Shown one piece after another: positions 21,000 to 63,316 of a stretch of DNA of 64,000 bases (its first letter is position 1; the number at the start of each line of letters is the position of its first letter). Below the pieces are notes generated by a model. The model ran no database searches, was not told where the DNA came from, and saw only the letters and a list, made by a program, of their open reading frames with translations. Source of the DNA: an uncultured Bacilli bacterium (GTDB taxonomy: Bacteria > Bacillota_I > Bacilli_A > RF39 > UBA660); the NCBI GenBank assembly GCA_950097225.1, contig CATNCE010000001.1, positions 48,451 to 112,450 of the forward strand. The letters are read 5' to 3'. The position numbers and the translations under genes are program-made.

Positions 21000-21108
21000 A
21001 TTTTATTTGATGATGAATGAAGGCGTTTTTTGACAAAATACTACACCATAATCGTTGTAAGCAAAATGAATTTTATGATACAATATTAGAAGAATAGGAA
21101 GCATGTTC

Positions 21109-22801
21109 ATGAGAAGAAAGAGTCTGCTAATTTTAATTATATTGTTACTTGTAGTTGGTTTTGCCAGTGTAGCAACAAATCTAATAATAAATAATACTTT
21201 AAACATCGGTTTTAATAATACATTCTTAGATGATGTTGTATTCATAAAAACTAAGACAGAAGGGGAGTCTTCCATAAGTGAAGATGGAAAAACAATGACC
21301 TATGATGCCAAGAAAATAAGTGCAGTGAATGAAGAGGCCATATTAACATTCTGGGTAAAGAACAAGAATACTCAGTATGATGCAGATGTAACCATTAATT
21401 GTAGTCTAAATGATAATTCAAGTACCTTATCTAATTTAGTAGATGTGACAATTGAACCCGATAAATTTACTCTGGCATCTAATGAAGTTAAAGTTGGTGA
21501 AGTAAAAATAAAGTTAAAAAGTGTAGTAATAGAAGAAAAGTCTGGAACCTTCACTTGTGAGTTAGTAGCAACACCAGAAGAAAGAGAAGTGCCAGGTGTA
21601 ATAACACCTGATAATTTATATGAAGATGGTGTAATAAATGGAGCTAAGCCTGAGTTATCAAAAGAGCTGATTCCAATAACTTTAGATAATACAGGAGTAG
21701 TAACATATGCTAATACCGATGAAAAATGGTATGATTATACAAATAAAGAATGGGCTAATGCAGTAATATTGGTTGATAGTCCAAGTAAAAACTATAATGT
21801 AGGAGATGTTATTTCTGAATCAGATATAGAATCATATTTCGTATGGATACCAAGATATCGATATAAGTTATTCCATGCTAATCAGGCAGATGGAACAACC
21901 ACAAAGTTGTCTGAGAGTATAGCTCAAGAAATCGAGATTGAGTTTGAGAGTAAAGATATACCAGTATCAACAGGAAGTCAAGATGGGGAATGGTTAACGC
22001 ATCCAGCTTTCACTAATTTTGATGTGAATGGTATGTAGATAGGAAAGTTTGAAACAGGTTATAAAGGAGCAACAAGTATAGCATCCTCGGAAGTAAATTC
22101 AAGTGATCCAACCAAAATACAGGTAAAACCAATTGTATACTCATGGTGTAATAATTCGGTAGGCAATTTCTTTAAAGCCATGTATAACTATAATCGTGAA
22201 TTAGATTCGCATATGATGAAAAATACAGAATGGGGGTGCAGTAGCATATTTAAGTCATTCTAAACATGGAATAAATACAGAGGTGCGAATAAATAATAAT
22301 TCAAACTATTTAACAGGATATGCAGCCAACACAAAAGATGCAGGACAAAGTACAACAAATAATCAACCATATAATACAGAAACAGGATATCTAGCTTCAA
22401 CGACTGGTAATATAACTGGGATATATGATATGTCAGGTGGGTCTTGGGAATATGTAGCTGGATACCTAGATGGAACTGTAGGGAGTAGTGGGCTCTCATT
22501 AACTGAAATAAGAAATACCTATAGTAAATATATAGATGTGTATGCAAGTAATAGTGGAATAACAACGTATAGCAACCGAATCTTAGGAGATGCAACAGGA
22601 GAGATGGGACCATTTTATGGAAGCAATCCATATTATAACAACTGGTATGATGATTATTTGAGCTTTGTGGACTCTTCCTACCCTTGGTTTTATCGCGGCA
22701 GCAGTTACTACTATGGCTCCGTTGCAGGCCAGTTCTACTTCGATAGGGGCACTGGTGATGCCTACAGCGGCGTCAGCGCACGCCTCGTTTTAGCTTTTTA
22801 G
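21109..22801 (+). pseudogene. Disrupted surface protein gene, copy A (shared N-terminal module plus FGE-sulfatase/C-type-lectin-like C-terminal domain)
   Basis: Collinear with the copy at 61626-63316. There is an in-frame TAG at 22036-22038 and a +1 frameshift in the G5 run at 22232-22236; deleting one G restores EWGAVAYLSHSKHG. GIYDMSGGSWEYV and YRGSS...VSARLVL resemble the GxYDMxGNVWEW and RGGSW...GFR motifs of FGE/SUMF1 domains. Confidence 0.75.
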
Positions 22802-23103
22802 TAAAACGAAATTAAATATTAAAAAAATTCTAGAAAATTATGTTATATATATTTGGATGGTATTTGCATTTAAAAGAAGTTTATTCAGTCAGAAGATATT
22901 GTGATTGGTTTTCTATTAGCTATTTATGAGAGGAAAAAGCCTGATATTAAAGTTTTGTGTCAATCCATATAGGAAATTAATGTCTTGAAAGAGCAAAACA
23001 ATGTATCTGAAAATGATGCGTTGTTTTTTTGTGCTCTTCTAAAAAGAACCTATTATTTTTTTATTGTTTATGGTAAAATTAATTTAATATGGAAGGTGTT
23101 TTT

Positions 23104-55512: not shown

Positions 55513-55656
55513 GAATGTAAAAAACTATATACAAATTGCTAAATATTTGTTAGAATATTTGTATATAGTAGGTATATGTTCTTTAACTTGACCAATAATA
55601 CGATATTTGATATAGTATTATCGGTTGAAAAGAATGTGTGTGGAGGGAAAGTAAAA

Positions 55657-58449
55657 ATGGACGAAAAGTTTATACAAAAATATTTTGACGAATTTCGTAA
55701 ATTTTCTTTGATGTTAGAAGAAAAAGAGAAAAAAGTTTTTGCGATGTCAAATGTAGATTATGATGTTGATCGTGGTATTTATGATGCTATAGAAGATACG
55801 TATTCAAACATGAGCTATTCGGATTATGTAGAAGAAGAGTCTAAGAAAAATGGGACAGTTATGTCAGAAAACGAGTTTGAAGCGTATAAGAAAGAAAGAG
55901 TTGCAGCGCTAAATAGAAATAGTGTTGGAAGAACTGATTATAATGGCGTTTATCAACCACATATGTATACTGAGGTTGAAAGTGAAATAGACGATATTAC
56001 TAAACAAATTAGAGAAGAGATAGCTCGTGAGAAAAAGGTTATTTCTAATTTGGTTCGTACGATTGAGGCTCAACTTAGTGTTTACCAAGATGAACTTGAT
56101 GATTGTTATAAAGCGATGATTAACGCGGATACTAATGAAGAAAAGGTGCGTCTTGGAGTAGAATTCAATGTTATAAAGAAAAATCATGAAATCAACAAAC
56201 AAGCTTTAGCTGATATGAAAATGTATCGTCGATTAATTGATCAAATTAATAAGGCGTATAGTCGTGATGATAGCTCACTTACTTATGATTCTATGGTGGT
56301 ATTTGCCGATAAGATTCATGAAGTTGAGGCATCAGTTAAATATTTAGGAGATAAGTTAGATAATGTTGATTATAATGAATTTCAAATCGATGTTACTTTT
56401 GATCCAGTAAGAAATGTAAATGTTGTGAATTGTCGTTGTGGGAATGTTGTATTATTTCCTGCACCTGATTTTGTTGCAGGCCAAATTACACCTGATACAA
56501 TAGATGGTATTTTATATAAATTTGCTGATAAAGTGGCTGCTAATTCACCATTGTCAGTGGAAGAGATAAAAGCTAAAGACATTAAATGTGTGGTATATGA
56601 TAATAATTATGGTAAAGTACCTTTTGCTAATGTTGGTGAAGTTTTATGTTCTCATATAGATAAGGATTTGAATAATGCTAATAGTTTGGATAATCCTTCA
56701 GCACCAGGACAAGATGATTTCTTAGCACCAGAATCACAAACTCCTCCAGTGCCAGGACAGGATAATTCTCCAGTACAAGGACAACAAACTCCTCCAGTAC
56801 CAGGACAGGATAATTCTCCAGTACAAGGACAACAAACTCCTCCAGTACAAGGACAGGATAATTCTCCGGCACAAGGACAGCAAACTCCTCCAGTACCAGG
56901 ACAGGATAATTCTCCAGTACAAGGACAGCAAACTCCTCCAGTACCAGGACAAGATAATTCTCCAGTACAAGGACAAGATAATCCTCCAACATCTAGAAGA
57001 AATGATAGTCCAGTGAAGGAACTCATGAAAGAAGCTAAGAGAATTAAATCAGTTAGAAATTCGAGATTACACAAAGCAGAAATGGCTGGATTAATTGCAA
57101 CGGTAGCAGCAGCGGGCTTAGGGGCTACTATTTTCCCTCCAGCAGCGTTGGCTACTGTACCAGCTCTTGTAGCAACAGGGGGAGTTGCAGCTACGGATGT
57201 AATTTCAAAAGTAAAAGACAAAGCTAAAGTGTGGGCTGTTACTCATAAATATAATAGCATAGCTAAGAAGTTAACTAAAAAATTAGGTGGAAGAAAAAGT
57301 GGTATAAAATGCTACGTTAAATCAATTCCGAATACCGGTGAAATTAGATTTATGATTTCTCAAGATGGGAAAGAAATTGGGCCAATTGATTCACATTCGA
57401 CGGGATATGTATTGTGCGATGAATTAGGATACGAGCAAAATGAAGCAAATACAATAGTTAATTATTTGAATAAGGCTTTGAACAAGTCATTCGATTACAT
57501 GAATAATGATGAAAAACGTAAAGGTACTCATTATGAAAAATATAGAATTCCAAAGGTTGATGTTGATAACTTAGAAGCAGCATATGTTGAGTATGGTGGC
57601 TATGATTTTGGACTTGAGGGTGATCAATATGCCGAAATGGATATTCGCAAGAAATCGCGAAAGAAGATGAAAAAAGGACGCAAAAGCATCTTTAGAAAGA
57701 GACATAGACTTGGTGATGAAATTACAGAGGATAATTTAGAAGATATAGCCGAGAGAAATTTTCAAGCTTTAGGTGATGGTACTTCTGAGGGAGAAGCGTT
57801 AAGCGAAGAAGAACAAGAAGAGTTCTTAGATCAGTTGTACGCTGATGATTATGATTATGACTATGAACAAGGTCAACAAGGACAAGAAGAGGAACTAATA
57901 GAAACACCAAATGAAGATTGGTATTCCCAACCTGTAGGTGAAAATCAAGGAACTGAGAGTAATTTTCAAGATGAACAAACTCCAGTAAATTATGAAGATA
58001 GCGAGTTACAAAATCCTGGTCAAGCTCAGCAAGCATCAGTGAATCCTGGTCAAGCTCAGCAAGCATCAGTGAATCCTGGTCAAGATGAACAACCGTCAGT
58101 AGATCCTGCTGTTGCTGCTAGATGGAGTGTGGATGATGAACAGGATTTTACTCCTCTGGATGAAAATTCTAACCAAGAGATGTCATTTCAGGAAGTGGGA
58201 CAAAATCAAAATTTGAATAATGCGCTTGCTGCAAATATAAATTCTGTTCTTGAAGCATTGCCATTTACGGCAGAACTTGATGAGACTGAAAGACAACAAT
58301 TTGTAAATGAGATATTAATGCAAGGCGAAGCTAGACAAAACGAAATCTTGAATGAAATATATTCAGGAAATGTAGCTTCTATTGATGAATTAAGAAACGT
58401 TATTTTACAAGATTCTATGGCACAAGAACAAAGTGCTCCAAGTATGTGA
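55657..58449 (+). CDS. M1: 930-aa hypothetical protein (N-domain, P/Q-rich repeats, Gly/Ala hydrophobic hairpin, shared core module, acidic repeat tail)
   Basis: RBS GGAGGG precedes the ATG at 55657. The core from ~aa 470 is paralogous to 58838..59695 and 60055..60918. Confidence 0.7.
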   Translation: MDEKFIQKYFDEFRKFSLMLEEKEKKVFAMSNVDYDVDRGIYDAIEDTYSNMSYSDYVEEESKKNGTVMSENEFEAYKKERVAALNRNSVGRTDYNGVYQPHMYTEVESEIDDITKQIREEIAREKKVISNLVRTIEAQLSVYQDELDDCYKAMINADTNEEKVRLGVEFNVIKKNHEINKQALADMKMYRRLIDQINKAYSRDDSSLTYDSMVVFADKIHEVEASVKYLGDKLDNVDYNEFQIDVTFDPVRNVNVVNCRCGNVVLFPAPDFVAGQITPDTIDGILYKFADKVAANSPLSVEEIKAKDIKCVVYDNNYGKVPFANVGEVLCSHIDKDLNNANSLDNPSAPGQDDFLAPESQTPPVPGQDNSPVQGQQTPPVPGQDNSPVQGQQTPPVQGQDNSPAQGQQTPPVPGQDNSPVQGQQTPPVPGQDNSPVQGQDNPPTSRRNDSPVKELMKEAKRIKSVRNSRLHKAEMAGLIATVAAAGLGATIFPPAALATVPALVATGGVAATDVISKVKDKAKVWAVTHKYNSIAKKLTKKLGGRKSGIKCYVKSIPNTGEIRFMISQDGKEIGPIDSHSTGYVLCDELGYEQNEANTIVNYLNKALNKSFDYMNNDEKRKGTHYEKYRIPKVDVDNLEAAYVEYGGYDFGLEGDQYAEMDIRKKSRKKMKKGRKSIFRKRHRLGDEITEDNLEDIAERNFQALGDGTSEGEALSEEEQEEFLDQLYADDYDYDYEQGQQGQEEELIETPNEDWYSQPVGENQGTESNFQDEQTPVNYEDSELQNPGQAQQASVNPGQAQQASVNPGQDEQPSVDPAVAARWSVDDEQDFTPLDENSNQEMSFQEVGQNQNLNNALAANINSVLEALPFTAELDETERQQFVNEILMQGEARQNEILNEIYSGNVASIDELRNVILQDSMAQEQSAPSM
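56737..56990. repeat. 48-bp near-perfect tandem repeat x5.3 (QTPPVPGQDNSPVQGQ)
   Basis: Units start at 56737, 56785, 56833, 56881 and 56929, with only a few substitutions between them. Confidence 0.95.
58012..58101. repeat. 30-bp tandem repeat x3 (NPGQAQQASV)
   Basis: AATCCTGGTCAAGCTCAGCAAGCATCAGTG occurs at 58012 and 58042, with a diverged third unit. Confidence 0.9.
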
Positions 58450-58463
58450 GAAAGGGAAAGAAT

Positions 58464-58772
58464 ATGATAGAGGTTGGTAATATAGTTACTCTTGAAAATG
58501 ATCAAGAATATCTATTGTTAGAAGAATTAGTGCATGATGCTAAGAAATATGTGTATGCAGTAAGAACAATTGAGAACGATACCCCTACAGATGAATTCAT
58601 TATATATGAAGTGATAAGTGCTGAGGATGGGGACTATATGAAGAATATCGATAGTCAGGAATTGTATGATGAGTTGATTGAAGAGTTCAAAGATGTTGTT
58701 GCTGATAAGATTCTTAATGGAGATTTTAAAGATACATTTGAGGAAAAAGATAATGAAGGAGAAGCTAGTTAA
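58464..58772 (+). CDS. S1: small acidic protein (102 aa), partner of M1
   Basis: The ATG at 58464 is 15 nt after the M1 stop. It is about 73% identical over 88 aa to 59698..59988. Faint resemblance to DUF1292-type small acidic proteins (inference). Confidence 0.7.
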   Translation: MIEVGNIVTLENDQEYLLLEELVHDAKKYVYAVRTIENDTPTDEFIIYEVISAEDGDYMKNIDSQELYDELIEEFKDVVADKILNGDFKDTFEEKDNEGEAS

Positions 58773-58784: not shown

Positions 58785-58837
58785 TTGTTATAATACATTC
58801 TGCATGTTATAATAAGTGTATGATTGGAGAATTTGTT

Positions 58838-59695
58838 ATGAGCGAAGAACAAAGAAGAGAAAATGAAGGAAATATAATTGATGATGAATTTCTTGATAAT
58901 CAACCTCGTAAAGTTATAGCACATAGAAAAGCTCGTGTTGCATCGGGAATGTTTTTATCTGGGCTTGCTTTATGTGGTTTAGGTTTGCCAATGCTTGGGG
59001 CTCCAGCTATGGTTGCGGGAGGAACAACGTTCGCTTTTACGGAGGGTAAGGAAATTGTAACAGAACTTATTGAATCTTTGAAAACTCAATTGATATTTGC
59101 TAAATTGGATAAGGTTATAGGAGAAGCTAATAAGTTGTTTGCTGATGATTATGAAAACAAGGGGATACATTTTTATTTTAAAGGTATTGCTGAAGGTAAT
59201 AGGTTAGTTTGTATGGCTACTTTATTTGGGAAAGATATTGGGGTAGTTGATTCACATACTTATAGAGAGACACTAGCCGGGAAAATGCATATGACAGAAG
59301 TAGAAGCTTTTTCAATTTATAAATTTCTTAGTGCTGCATTGAGAAGAGAATTTGCATCTATGCTTAAATCTCCTAAATTAGCACAAAAAGGCTTTGTAGC
59401 TAGTCTTGATTGTTTAGAGAAAGTTTATGTTGATGTTGGTGGATATCAGTACAAAGAAAAAGCTAATCTTACATTTGAAGAATTTTGGGAAGATTGGGAT
59501 CTTCTATGTGAGTTGTCTTCTGAATCTAAGCAAGAGTTGTATCAAGACTTAATGAATTTAGAAGAAGAAAGACAGAATCATATTTTGGCAGCTATTGCTT
59601 GTGGAAGAATAAAAAGTCTACATCAGTTAACTACTTTTGTTCATGGGGAAGAGCAGCTAGATAATGATGATGTTAGATCTAGAAGGGGAATATAA
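58838..59695 (+). CDS. M2: 285-aa paralogue of the M1 core module
   Basis: Gly/Ala hairpin GMFLSGLALCGLGLPMLGAPAMVAGG, then VVDSHTYRE, VDVGGYQY and a C-terminal EERQNHILAAIACGRIKSLHQL. Two TGTTATAAT extended -10 boxes lie at 58786-58794 and 58805-58813. Confidence 0.7.
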   Translation: MSEEQRRENEGNIIDDEFLDNQPRKVIAHRKARVASGMFLSGLALCGLGLPMLGAPAMVAGGTTFAFTEGKEIVTELIESLKTQLIFAKLDKVIGEANKLFADDYENKGIHFYFKGIAEGNRLVCMATLFGKDIGVVDSHTYRETLAGKMHMTEVEAFSIYKFLSAALRREFASMLKSPKLAQKGFVASLDCLEKVYVDVGGYQYKEKANLTFEEFWEDWDLLCELSSESKQELYQDLMNLEEERQNHILAAIACGRIKSLHQLTTFVHGEEQLDNDDVRSRRGI

Positions 59696-59697
59696 TT

Positions 59698-59988
59698 ATG
59701 ATAGAAGTTGGAAATATAGTAACTCTTGAAAATGAAAAGGAGTATCTATTGCTCGAAGAATTAGATCGTGATGATAAAAAGTATGTGTATGCTGTTAGAA
59801 CACTTGAAGATGATACTCCTACAGATGAATACGTTATATTTGAAGTATTACATGTTGATGAAGATGAGTATTTAAAAGATGTTGAGAATCAAGAACTTTA
59901 TGATGAATTAGTTGAGGAGTTTAAAGATATTGTTGCTGATAAGATTCTTAATGGAGACTTTGATGATATGGAGGAAGTTAGTGAATAG
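59698..59988 (+). CDS. S2: small acidic protein (96 aa), partner of M2
   Basis: Starts 2 nt after the M2 stop. MIEVGNIVTLENEKEYLLLEEL...QELYDELVEEFKDIVADKILNGDF. Confidence 0.7.
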   Translation: MIEVGNIVTLENEKEYLLLEELDRDDKKYVYAVRTLEDDTPTDEYVIFEVLHVDEDEYLKDVENQELYDELVEEFKDIVADKILNGDFDDMEEVSE

Positions 59989-60054
59989 CTTCTTCTTTAT
60001 TTGCCAAAATAAATGTTGCTATGGTATAATGGCGAAGAAACGGAGAAAAAGGTT

Positions 60055-60918
60055 ATGAACGAAAATAAAAGTGAAACTCAAAATGAGACTATGATTGTTG
60101 CAGAAAAAACTCATAAAGTAATGTATTCGCGATTTTGTAAATTATATAAAGTATTTGGCAGTATTGCTATTGTTGGTTTAGCTAGTATGGGCTTGGGATT
60201 TAATGATTTTGGAACGACTGTTGCAAGAGTTGGAGCGTTTTCATTAGGAACTAGTGCAGCTGCTTCACTTTTCATGCAAGCTTATCCAGCCATAATTACT
60301 CGTAAGCTTGAAAAAATCGCCAATAGGCTTAATTCTATGTTTTCTACCTTTTCTAGTAAGAGAGAGCTTAGATTTAGGTTAGCTATTGATTCACATTCGG
60401 GAGAAGTTAATTATTGTGTGTTATTAGATAATCAAGTATTGGGTTTAATTACAACTGATGGATATTTAGATGTTCTTGTTAATAAAGCTGGCCTTGAACC
60501 TGGTGCTGCTGAGGCGATTGTTACTTATCTTAATAATTCTTTATTATCTGTTTTTTCGAGTATTAAGAATAAAGATATTTATGAAGCAAATACTTTTGAT
60601 ATACCAAGTATTGATATTGATAATATGGACGCTATTTATGCAATGTATGGACATTCTTTTTTAAAGTCTAGAGATGATATGTGTTTTGAAGAATACTTTG
60701 ATAGATGGAATGTTATAGCTATTCTTGATGAAGTTGAAAAAAATGCTTTATTTGAAGAAATTTTGGCGTTAGATTTTGAAAGAAGAGCGATAGTTTTAGA
60801 GGGAATCTATACTAATTCTATTAAAGATGTTGAGGAATTACGAAGTCTTATTGCAAATGGTAAAAAAGTGCAAAAAGGACACGCTTTAGCTATGGAGAAA
60901 AAAGAAGAAATCAAGTAA
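60055..60918 (+). CDS. M3: 287-aa paralogue of the M1 core module (no S partner)
   Basis: TTGCCA-18 nt-TATAAT with TG (60001-60030). Hairpin IAIVGLASMGLGFNDFGTTVARVGAFSLG, then IVTYLNNSL, AMYGHSF and FERRAIVLEGIYTNSIKDVEEL. Confidence 0.7.
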   Translation: MNENKSETQNETMIVAEKTHKVMYSRFCKLYKVFGSIAIVGLASMGLGFNDFGTTVARVGAFSLGTSAAASLFMQAYPAIITRKLEKIANRLNSMFSTFSSKRELRFRLAIDSHSGEVNYCVLLDNQVLGLITTDGYLDVLVNKAGLEPGAAEAIVTYLNNSLLSVFSSIKNKDIYEANTFDIPSIDIDNMDAIYAMYGHSFLKSRDDMCFEEYFDRWNVIAILDEVEKNALFEEILALDFERRAIVLEGIYTNSIKDVEELRSLIANGKKVQKGHALAMEKKEEIK

Positions 60919-61625: not shown

Positions 61626-63316
61626 ATGAAGAAGAAAAGTTTAATAATTTTAAGTATATTGTTACTTGTAATTGGATAGCGTAGCAACTAATTTGATAAT
61701 CAATAGCAATTTGAATATTGGATATAATAATACTTTTTTGGATGATGTTGTTTTCATAAAAACTAAGACAGAAGGTGAGTCTTCTATAAGTGAAAATGGA
61801 AAGGCGATTACATATGACGCTAAGAAAATAAGTGCAATGAATGAAGAAACAAATCTAACATTTTGGGTGAAGAATAAGAAGAATACTCAATATGATGCTA
61901 TGATGTAACCATTAATTGTAGTTTAAACGATAATTCAAGTAACTTAGTCAACTTAGTAGATGTAACAATAAATCCAAGTAGTTTTACATTAGCAAGTAAC
62001 GAATTCAAAACTGGAGAAGTAAAAGTAAAGTTAAAAAGTGTAGTAACAGAAGAGAAATCTGGAACCTTTACATGTGAGTTAGTAGCAACACCAGTAGAAA
62101 GAGAAGAGCCAGGTGTAATAACACCTGATAATTTATATGAAGGTAGTGTAATAAATGGAGCTAAGCCAGAGATATCTAAAAATTTAATACCAGTAACTTT
62201 AGATAATACTGGAGTAGTAAAATATGCTAATACGGATGAGAAATGGTATGATTATACAAATAAAGAATGGGCCAATGCAGTAATATTAGTAGACGAACCA
62301 AGTAAAAATTATAATATAGGTGACGTTATAGTTGAAGCTGATATTGAGTCATACTTCGTATGGGTACCAAGATATAGATATAAGTTGTTTAATGCCGAAC
62401 CAGCAGATGGTCTTAGTGCTCAATTACCAGAAAGTAATGCTCAAACAATTGAAATCGAGTTTGAGAGTAAAGACATACAAGCATCAACTGGAAGTAAGAA
62501 CGGCGAATGGTTAACGCATCCAGCTTTCACAAATTTCGATGTAAATGGGTTGCGGGTAGGTAAGTTTCAAACGGGATACAAAGGAGCGACTAGTGTAACA
62601 TCAGCTCAGGTGAATTCTTCGGATTCTACCAAAATTCAAGTAAAATCTAATGTGCCTTCGTGGCGGGATAACACACTTGGTAATTTCTTTAAAGCTATGT
62701 ATAACTACAATCGCGGACTTGGTTCACATATGATGAAAAATACGGAATGGGGAGCTGTTGCATATCTTCACATTCAAAGTATGGAATTAATACAAATTTG
62801 CGTATAAATAACAATTCAAATTATTTAACAGGCTATGCAGCAAATACACAGTATGCTCTTGCTAGTGCAACAAATAATTCAGCTTATAACACACCAGTTG
62901 GGTATTTGGCGAGTACAACAGGAAATATAAGTGGAATTTATGACATGTCTGGTGGGGCCTGGGAATATGTTGCTGGTTATAAAGATGGTGATTTAGGAAG
63001 TAGTGGACTTACAATGGAGGAGCTAAATGGTATTTATAAAGGATATGTGGATGTTTATCCAAGTGATTCAAGTACATCTACCTATAGCAAACGAATATTA
63101 GGAGATGCAACAGGAGAGATGGGGCCTTTCTATGATTATAATAATTTTAATTTAAGTAATTGGTATCCGTCTTATTCCTTTTTTGTAGATACAGCACCAT
63201 GATTTTATCGAGGTGGGCTCTATAATGCAACAACTCATGCGGGCCAATTTCATTTTTCTAGGGGAACAGGAGAAGTCAGTGATAAAATTGGAGCTCGCCT
63301 TGTTTTATTGGGTTAG
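61626..63316 (+). pseudogene. Disrupted surface protein gene, copy B (paralogue of 21109..22801)
   Basis: Four lesions relative to copy A: a ~5-nt deletion giving TAG at 61677; a +2 insertion near 61899; a -1 deletion near 62768; and an in-frame TGA at 63200-63202 where copy A has Trp (YPWFYRG versus AP*FYRG). Reading across these gives a full-length collinear protein ending IGARLVLLG. Confidence 0.8.

Follow-up and report, generated by a model that had tools for sequence, protein, structure and literature searches.

What could place a short GC-rich, adenine-poor segment, more than half of whose codons end in C, at the very end of a protein gene in an AT-rich bacterial genome? The question is raised by copy A, one of two members of a putative surface-protein family in a 64,000-nt stretch of an uncultured Bacilli bacterium (GenBank assembly GCA_950097225.1, contig CATNCE010000001.1, positions 48,451 to 112,450), referred to here as the window. 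A first-pass annotation of the window had proposed that this patch is a candidate variable repeat (VR) of a diversity-generating retroelement (DGR), and a remote or orphaned one. We consider a DGR origin of the patch very likely, and the combined statement, that a DGR wrote it and that it is now frozen or orphaned, likely.

The composition of the patch is as the first-pass annotation had described it. On the plus strand, its 110 nt contain 17 A, 32 C, 31 G and 30 T, or 57.3% G+C and 15.5% A, in a window whose 110-nt segments average 31.6% G+C (standard deviation 5.4 points). Among all 63,890 such segments, the G+C peak starts at 22677 and is the sole spot reaching 55% or more; the remaining stretches with at least 50% G+C include tRNA genes and a P/Q-rich protein. 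Twenty of the final 36 sense codons (22691-22798) end in C, exactly those previously listed, against 4 of 36 in the collinear stretch of the paralog, copy B, whose VR-equivalent (~63158-63313) has decayed to 42% G+C. Along copy A, third-position C in 15-codon windows goes from 0-0.2 in the body to 0.5-0.6 from about 22670 onwards, and amounts to 0.53 in the VR against 0.08 in the gene body. The GC-rich VR also opens a spurious 42-aa open reading frame (ORF) in another frame (22665-22793, +). The C-terminus of a paralogous protein, P0018 (L009:9089-9250), reads that alternative frame (…GSIAAAITIMVPLQGSS…), which therefore indicates a frameshift just upstream of the VR in another paralog of the species.

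After repair of its two lesions, an in-frame stop and a frameshift that had both been called earlier and are both present in the window sequence, copy A encodes a signal or anchor segment, an N-terminal beta-sandwich and a FGE/C-type-lectin-like C-terminal domain. Its homologs number more than 7,900 proteins, the closest being 85% identical and none carrying a Pfam annotation. The hosts are uncultured small-genome gut Bacilli, known from "Bacilli/Tenericutes" metagenome-assembled genomes (MAGs) of mouse, human (Hadza) and rabbit gut, including one circular genome of 1.31 Mb. Every relative genome is multi-copy, with at least 13 copies in MGBC164624, and nine scattered copies were seen in the window species on the fragments examined (L001 carries four, the window and L009 two each, and L002 one). 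Across 120 homologs, the last ~55 residues keep a fixed scaffold, PWFxRGGxYxxGxxAGQFxFxRxTG...RLVL, in which hypervariable sites rich in Tyr, Ser, Gly, Asn, Asp and His are interspersed; within the close group, mean identity is 75% in the body vs 57% in the patch.

For the FGE/C-type-lectin-like fold that the first-pass annotation had assigned to this domain, support from sequence is marginal. The Pfam FGE-sulfatase model matches copy A with E=0.009 and 16.1 bits, below the cut-off of 23.3, and the best match of solved structure is the DGR variable protein TaqVP (5vf4; E=0.029 with a single sequence, E=0.004 with a family profile), over the conserved HxMxNxEW...GIxDxxGxxWE core. The AlphaFold2 model of P0001, an intact paralog from the same species, is confident only at about residues 40-160, the N-terminal beta-sandwich, with a predicted local distance difference test (pLDDT) score below 50 in the C-terminal domain. 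The N-terminal parts differ within the family: the target gene of one relative (L037:9590-11554, in the 1.31-Mb circular MAG) has a type IV pilin-like N-terminus (KGFTLIELLAVIIILG), whereas the window copies have the plain signal/anchor and beta-sandwich, and the variable domain is therefore joined to different display modules.

The evidence that ties this family to DGRs comes from related genomes. A motif scan for DGR-type reverse transcriptases (RTs) covered 1.15 Mb of context around the homologs, and found RTs with the signature IPIGN[FY]TSQ...YMDD about 1.5 kb downstream of family genes at two loci, L017 and L037. At both, the 3' end of the gene and a non-coding copy just downstream, the template repeat (TR), form a direct repeat pair of 142-153 nt, whose mismatches fall at adenines of the downstream copy in 20 of 20 cases in L017 and 16 of 18 in L037. 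Further cassettes were recognized at L025, L090, L091, L092, L095 and L096; L091 and L092 were found by a metagenome scan with a template-specific pattern and belong to other subfamilies. Six VR/TR pairs were compared over a common 135-nt core, with the counts given in the table. At these six loci, a family member lies directly upstream of the TR, and a complete MutS_I-bAvd-RVT_1 cassette follows at five of them, the contig of L092 ending before the cassette; L096 supplies a seventh template, with no VR on its own contig. According to Pfam, template and RT are separated by genes for a MutS_I-domain protein and for bAvd. In all five complete cassettes examined, the order on a single strand is target (VR), TR, MutS_I protein (~125 aa), bAvd (~120 aa) and RT (~345 aa).

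At two loci or more, the neighbours of the cassettes are housekeeping genes (ftsZ, a sigma factor, ribosomal proteins) and not phage genes, and these DGRs are therefore chromosomal. A blastn search of GenBank phages gave no match, scaffold-pattern and protein searches of IMG/VR viral contigs returned nothing, and no sign of a phage-borne version was seen in either. The templates have about 46-50% G+C in genomes of about 33%, and their scaffold codons end in C. In public databases, such TRs are sometimes annotated as short Asn-rich "proteins" (P0243-P0250; L017:2440-2763), and an all-Asn version of the VR scaffold, used as a query, retrieves these template ORFs specifically, which makes it a handy template finder.

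The window patch can be linked directly to these foreign templates. The segment 22646-22798 is nearly collinear, at the nucleotide level, with the L017 template: where the template reads TTC AAC TTC AAT AGG AAC ACT GGT GAT GCC AAC AGC AAC GAT, the window reads TTC TAC TTC GAT AGG GGC ACT GGT GAT GCC TAC AGC GGC GTC. The variable codons of the window sit on AAC and AAT codons of the template, and they are thus the products expected from adenine mutagenesis; the C-ending scaffold codons of the patch are likewise explained by the C-ending scaffold codons that the GC-rich templates carry. Compared with the seven templates, all from other genera, the patch mismatches at 48-66% of template adenines and at 19-38% of other positions, and the enrichment at adenines is significant for six of the seven (Fisher's test, p<0.03; values from 3e-4 to 0.02). 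The counts are 16/33 A vs 19/102 non-A for the L017 template (p=1e-3) and 19/34 A vs 22/101 non-A for that of L096 (p=3e-4), and a sister copy of the same species, L1g0, gives p=7e-6 against foreign templates. Over the 135-nt core, the copy A VR has a G+C content of 0.54; the four template-adjacent VRs have 0.52-0.59, with third-position C of 0.38-0.49. The composition of the copy A patch matches that of freshly written VRs.

These comparisons lead us to the following explanation. A chromosomal DGR of the TR-MutS_I(MSL)-bAvd-RT type, where MSL stands for MutS-like, very likely rewrote the 3' end of the surface-protein gene from a template rich in G+C and in AAC codons, through reverse transcription that misreads template adenines. 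Faithful copying of the scaffold codons would bring in foreign C-ending codons, and conversion of AAC and AAT into NNC and NNT (TAC, GGC, GAT, GTC and others) would yield a low-adenine segment encoding a Tyr/Gly/Ser-rich binding tip. Homology with the relatives' VR/TR pairs shows this writing step, whereas the freezing is inferred. The proposal of a candidate VR is thus supported by the homologs' pairs beside MutS_I-bAvd-RT, by collinearity and by the adenine bias against foreign templates. As for the freezing, the copy would probably no longer be rewritten, or only very rarely, its gene carrying a stop and a frameshift, its template being far away and its sequence drifting slowly.

No cognate retroelement was found near the patch. 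Within the window, lenient BLASTN with the patch returned AT-rich noise and no TR, and a six-frame scan found no DGR-RT motifs, in agreement with the first-pass annotation, which had reported neither TR, RT nor Avd. In about 177 kb of sequence from the species and genus, no TR-like copy was found, nor any MSL, Avd or RT by tblastn. An all-Asn pseudo-template peptide searched against 5.8 billion proteins retrieved eight template-encoded ORFs from other genera and none with the GS.AGQF...SARLVL scaffold of this genus. Looking up the RT matches P0134 and P0137 and the "rewritten" ortholog P0253 revealed no cassette from the window genus, and the NCBI RT matches whose contigs were checked all lie in other MAGs. 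Short-read assemblies break inside family genes, at the conserved ILGDATGEMGPFY region and elsewhere: window positions 21683-22437 fall between the end of L093 and the start of L003 in GCA_948979055.1, and the Logan contigs L004-L007 all begin at window position 22592. It is therefore likely that MAGs under-represent or split family copies and any adjacent cassette.

Comparison between strains argues in the same direction. GCA_948979055.1 encodes a protein identical to the YqeH downstream of copy A, its contig 1 begins inside copy A, and its gap (~21683-22437) spans both lesion sites. Six assemblies, representing two lineages, differ by one single-nucleotide polymorphism (SNP) in ~210 bp of patch, at 22700, whereas the adjoining ~300 bp of intergenic sequence has four SNPs. 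The hypervariability among strains that the first-pass annotation had suggested looking for was not seen in these two lineages. Among ten ortholog pairs from the window genus with at least 90% identity, eight have static patches, with 3/416 differences vs 115/4078 in the body; P0009/P0260, P0020/P0254 and P0022/P0263 are examples in which the patch has changed less than the remainder of the protein. This suggests either selection maintaining a binding tip once it has been written, or a reshuffling of bodies between paralogs.

The copies of the species and genus also differ in how far their VRs have departed from template-like composition. Their third-position C forms a gradient (0.53, 0.51, 0.49, 0.42, 0.38, 0.29, 0.20, 0.07 and 0.07, with bodies at ~0.08) that looks like a decay clock running since the last rewriting. 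The four least-decayed copies of the window species differ at 55 of 159 columns, 27 of which contain no A at all and show mostly third-position C/T differences, so these copies share no single current template. In a DGR-bearing MAG (L025), copies on other contigs are adenine-biased, yet 10-26% diverged from the resident template at non-adenine sites, which would make drifting relic copies the norm in this family.

Does the patch then remain in use? If the genome contains a live chromosomal MSL-Avd-RT DGR at some other place, its template could still be rewriting this copy and several other dispersed ones. We regard this as unlikely, although several observations speak for it: the relatives' cassettes of the same type are chromosomal, non-phage and set among housekeeping genes, reports of targets more than 100 kb away are limited to DGRs with probably no phage association (PMC5758913), in this species the composition of the window patch and of three more copies is un-decayed (third-position C 0.42-0.53), an 8-bp hairpin stands where the VR ends, and patches have been rewritten in two ortholog pairs of the genus. 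Against it, the two lineages differ by that one base in the patch while their flanks have diverged more, the apparently fresh copies differ at the 27 columns without A and so have no shared current template, the gene is disrupted, the register of the hairpin is unlike that of proven targets, and the search of 5.8 billion proteins that recovered templates from other genera contained no template ORF with the scaffold of this genus. The term "orphaned", which the first-pass annotation had offered, therefore fits better than "actively diversified", since the patch is near-invariant across two lineages and neither a TR nor a cassette protein occurs in the species sequence searched.

The first-pass annotation had also held that an invariant patch without a TR or RT would point to a mosaic produced by recombination or horizontal gene transfer, a rule that we judge too strict. 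A segment acquired from a GC-richer organism or from a paralog, with no retroelement involved, would account for the sharp compositional boundary, and the numerous paralogs make gene conversion possible; paralog gene conversion could indeed have moved an already written VR into copy A. Yet an equivalent patch occupies the same position in about 100 copies from many low-GC genomes, the patch matches non-coding template repeats adjoining RTs, and a foreign donor predicts neither adenine-specific mismatches nor NNC codons placed exactly on AAC template codons, which leaves such a mosaic very improbable. Even less credit can be given to the notion that composition merely follows from the encoded peptide, a loop under selection that is rich in Gly, Tyr, Ser, Ala and Arg and would draw on GC-rich codons. 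The synonymous C-ending codons TAC, TTC, GGC, AGC and CGC reach 53% in the patch against 8% in the body of the same gene, and AT-rich codons serve for the same scaffold in copy B and further decayed copies, so this by-product explanation is effectively refuted.

The preferred explanation, a patch written by a DGR and since frozen or orphaned, has itself to be set against several points that tell the other way. The adenine rule was tested for the window only against templates from other genera, where non-adenine mismatches reach 19-38%, and this is weaker than a test within one genome. The genome measures ~1.3 Mb or more, of which the ~177 kb examined is a part, and the window species is not represented in the genome and metagenome collections scanned, where the "VR base or A" pattern gave 0 hits and so missed even the window's own VR. 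The strain comparison is limited to two lineages. The G5 run could be either a real lesion or a homopolymer sequencing error. In two of the ten ortholog pairs of the genus, the patch has been rewritten (at 15/52 and at 26/52 positions), so diversification did occur in the genus at some point. Finally, the window patch has barely decayed, its third-position C being the highest of all 106 copies; in an AT-rich genome this suggests that it was written comparatively recently, and gives a live DGR elsewhere in the genome some probability.

The end of the patch deserves separate consideration, as the hairpin reported there in the first-pass annotation is real and its arms are exact. Perfect stems of 8 bp or more are present in 1.4% of the 62-nt segments of this sequence and in 2.7% of shuffled ones, which gives the chance expectation. 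Each of the four template-adjacent VRs that were examined has a hairpin of 8-12 bp that begins 6-8 nt past the RLVL codons and that its template lacks; these hairpins fit, by analogy, the inverted repeat that promotes homing in the Bordetella and Legionella DGRs (PMC5758913). The stem of copy A belongs to a hairpin of similar kind, but begins 8 nt before the end of RLVL, about 15 nt off the register of those four, and as support for a DGR origin it is weak. A role of the hairpin as terminator was rejected, there being no T-run and the real terminator lying ~200 nt downstream. The GC-rich 3' end of the repeat, by analogy with PMC5758913, is inferred to act as a candidate initiation of mutagenic homing (IMH) site. 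Inside this invariant end and upstream of the AT-rich hairpin, 22769-22784 can form a 5-bp GC-rich stem (GGCGT...ACGCC), which may be a by-product of the coding sequence.

Table. Positions of the features discussed, with the mismatch counts of the six VR/TR pairs (135-nt core)
Feature	Position	Strand	Basis or detail
GC-rich, A-poor VR core (patch first reported)	22681..22790	+	base composition
Variable repeat (VR)	22646..22798	+	boundaries from collinearity with the 153-nt VR/TR pair of L017
Non-variable GC-rich 3' end of the repeat (AGCGCACGCCTCGTTTTA...), at the IMH position of known DGRs	22775..22798	+	shared with VR and TR 3' ends in L017 and L025
8-bp inverted repeat (TCGTTTTA/TAAAACGA), 9-nt loop, spanning the stop codon	22785..22809 (arms 22785-22792, 22802-22809)	+	exact match
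Sole patch difference between strain lineages	22700	+	A, giving AGC (Ser), in window and MAG; G, giving GGC (Gly, conserved RGG), in the remaining four assemblies
Copy A of the family gene	21103..22801	+	ORFs and lesion repair; 565 aa repaired
In-frame TAG replacing TGG of a family-invariant Trp (W312 in the alignment)	22036..22038	+	window sequence; inside the gap of the sole other assembly spanning the gene
G5 run where the family frame needs G4 (+1 frameshift)	22232..22236	+	inside the MAG assembly gap
Probable intrinsic terminator of the copy A gene	22995..23027	+	13-bp stem, then T-run
Copy B, paralog with at least 4 lesions	61626..63316	+	VR-equivalent at about 63158-63313, 42% G+C
VR ends of the gradient copies	window 22792, 63307; L001 298, 9478, 11197, 12910; L002 11677; L009 1068, 9250; L089 1499		
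Complete cassettes examined	L017:2909-4648; L037:12109-13848; L090:936-2669; L095:5296-7026; L096:747-2483		
VR/TR mismatches, L017			17/33 template A vs 0/102 non-A
VR/TR mismatches, L090			10/29 template A vs 0/106 non-A
VR/TR mismatches, L095			12/34 template A vs 0/101 non-A
VR/TR mismatches, L092			17/41 template A vs 0/94 non-A
VR/TR mismatches, L037			15/31 template A vs 2/104 non-A
VR/TR mismatches, L025			15/34 template A vs 3/101 non-A

Between them, the two window copies have changes at three conserved Trp codons: the TGG to TAG change of copy A and, in copy B, 62551-62553 and 63201-63203, which read CGG and TGA. Each copy also has one frameshift in a short homopolymer, G5 for G4 in copy A and T2 for T3 in copy B, where assembly errors are possible. 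An alternative genetic code was considered for the in-frame TGA of copy B and rejected, given the long table 11 ORFs across the window. Upstream of copy B lies a tandem-duplicated two-gene unit (58446-58772 / 59698-59988 plus 58820-59695 / 60013-60918), consisting of a small acidic protein with the N-terminus MIEVGNIVTLEN and a membrane protein of ~295 aa. Before this unit, 55576-58449 encodes a 957-aa protein with P/Q-rich repeats (QTPPVPGQDNSPVQG), another GC-rich spot.

Among known systems, one of the closest parallels is found in Treponema denticola (PMC4891356). As in the window family, for which the fold is a candidate one, multi-copy surface proteins of C-type-lectin/FGE fold carry the VR at their C-terminus, copies lie far from an RT and TR or lack them, and mismatches between their VRs and the templates of relatives that do have a DGR fall mostly at adenines. 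The two systems differ in that the DGR of T. denticola belongs to the HRDC-gene family, whereas the Bacilli accessories are a MutS-like protein and Avd; in addition, the window host is an uncultured small-genome gut Bacilli, the copy is a pseudogene, and the relation to templates was drawn across genera and not strains. DGRs with MSL and avd constitute the class named "Architecture D" (Wu et al. 2018, PMC5758913), exemplified by the Legionella DGR. The relatives' cassettes resemble this class in that a small MutS_I protein, bAvd and a DGR-type RT are encoded together downstream of the target, all on one strand. Their arrangement reads target(VR)-TR-MSL-avd-RT, the target being followed directly by the TR, and no such cassette was found in the window.

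Regarding the proteins, TaqVP (PDB 5VF4), Mtd and TvpA are solved DGR variable proteins of the FGE subtype of the C-type-lectin fold. TaqVP has its VR at the extreme C-terminus, as has the window family, although the window VR spans ~50 residues vs 40-45 in these three, and sequence similarity is marginal. A further likeness concerns Bordetella phage BPP-1, where a GC-rich invariant VR 3' end is followed by an inverted repeat without TR counterpart (PMC5758913), an arrangement that is clear in the four template-adjacent VRs. Unlike in BPP-1, the stems are AT-rich here, and that of the window overlaps the last codons.

FGE/C-type-lectin-fold targets, MSL and Avd accessories and remote targets have already been described (PMC5758913), as have target genes that lack RT and TR and carry adenine-biased VRs (T. 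denticola, PMC4891356). The mechanism is thus not new, and the finding leaves the known mechanism of DGRs unchanged; the host clade and the protein family appear to be unannotated. Of modest interest are how large the family is, how many dispersed copies a genome of only 1.3 Mb can carry, that most binding tips are frozen, and that compositional decay forms a gradient. A tentative scheme, which we consider possible though not probable, is that DGRs in this group write rarely and then freeze. A set of 10-20 dispersed paralogs would be rewritten episodically, each tip then being held more conserved than the rest of its protein, while the cassette is gained and lost; third-position C of the VR would serve as a clock under AT-biased mutation, and the window copy would have been written last of all, shortly before its disruption.

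For the annotation of such genomes, a DGR footprint can be recognized from raw sequence, as a GC-rich, A-poor patch of NNC codons at the 3' end of a lectin-like gene, when the retroelement is not nearby. The appropriate label for such a patch is variable repeat, possibly a relic, and not horizontal-transfer island. The analysis further marks out as DGR targets a very large family of surface proteins of uncultured gut Bacilli that lacks annotation, and the decay gradient among its paralogs offers a means to order rewriting events in time and to ask how often remote targets are actually used.

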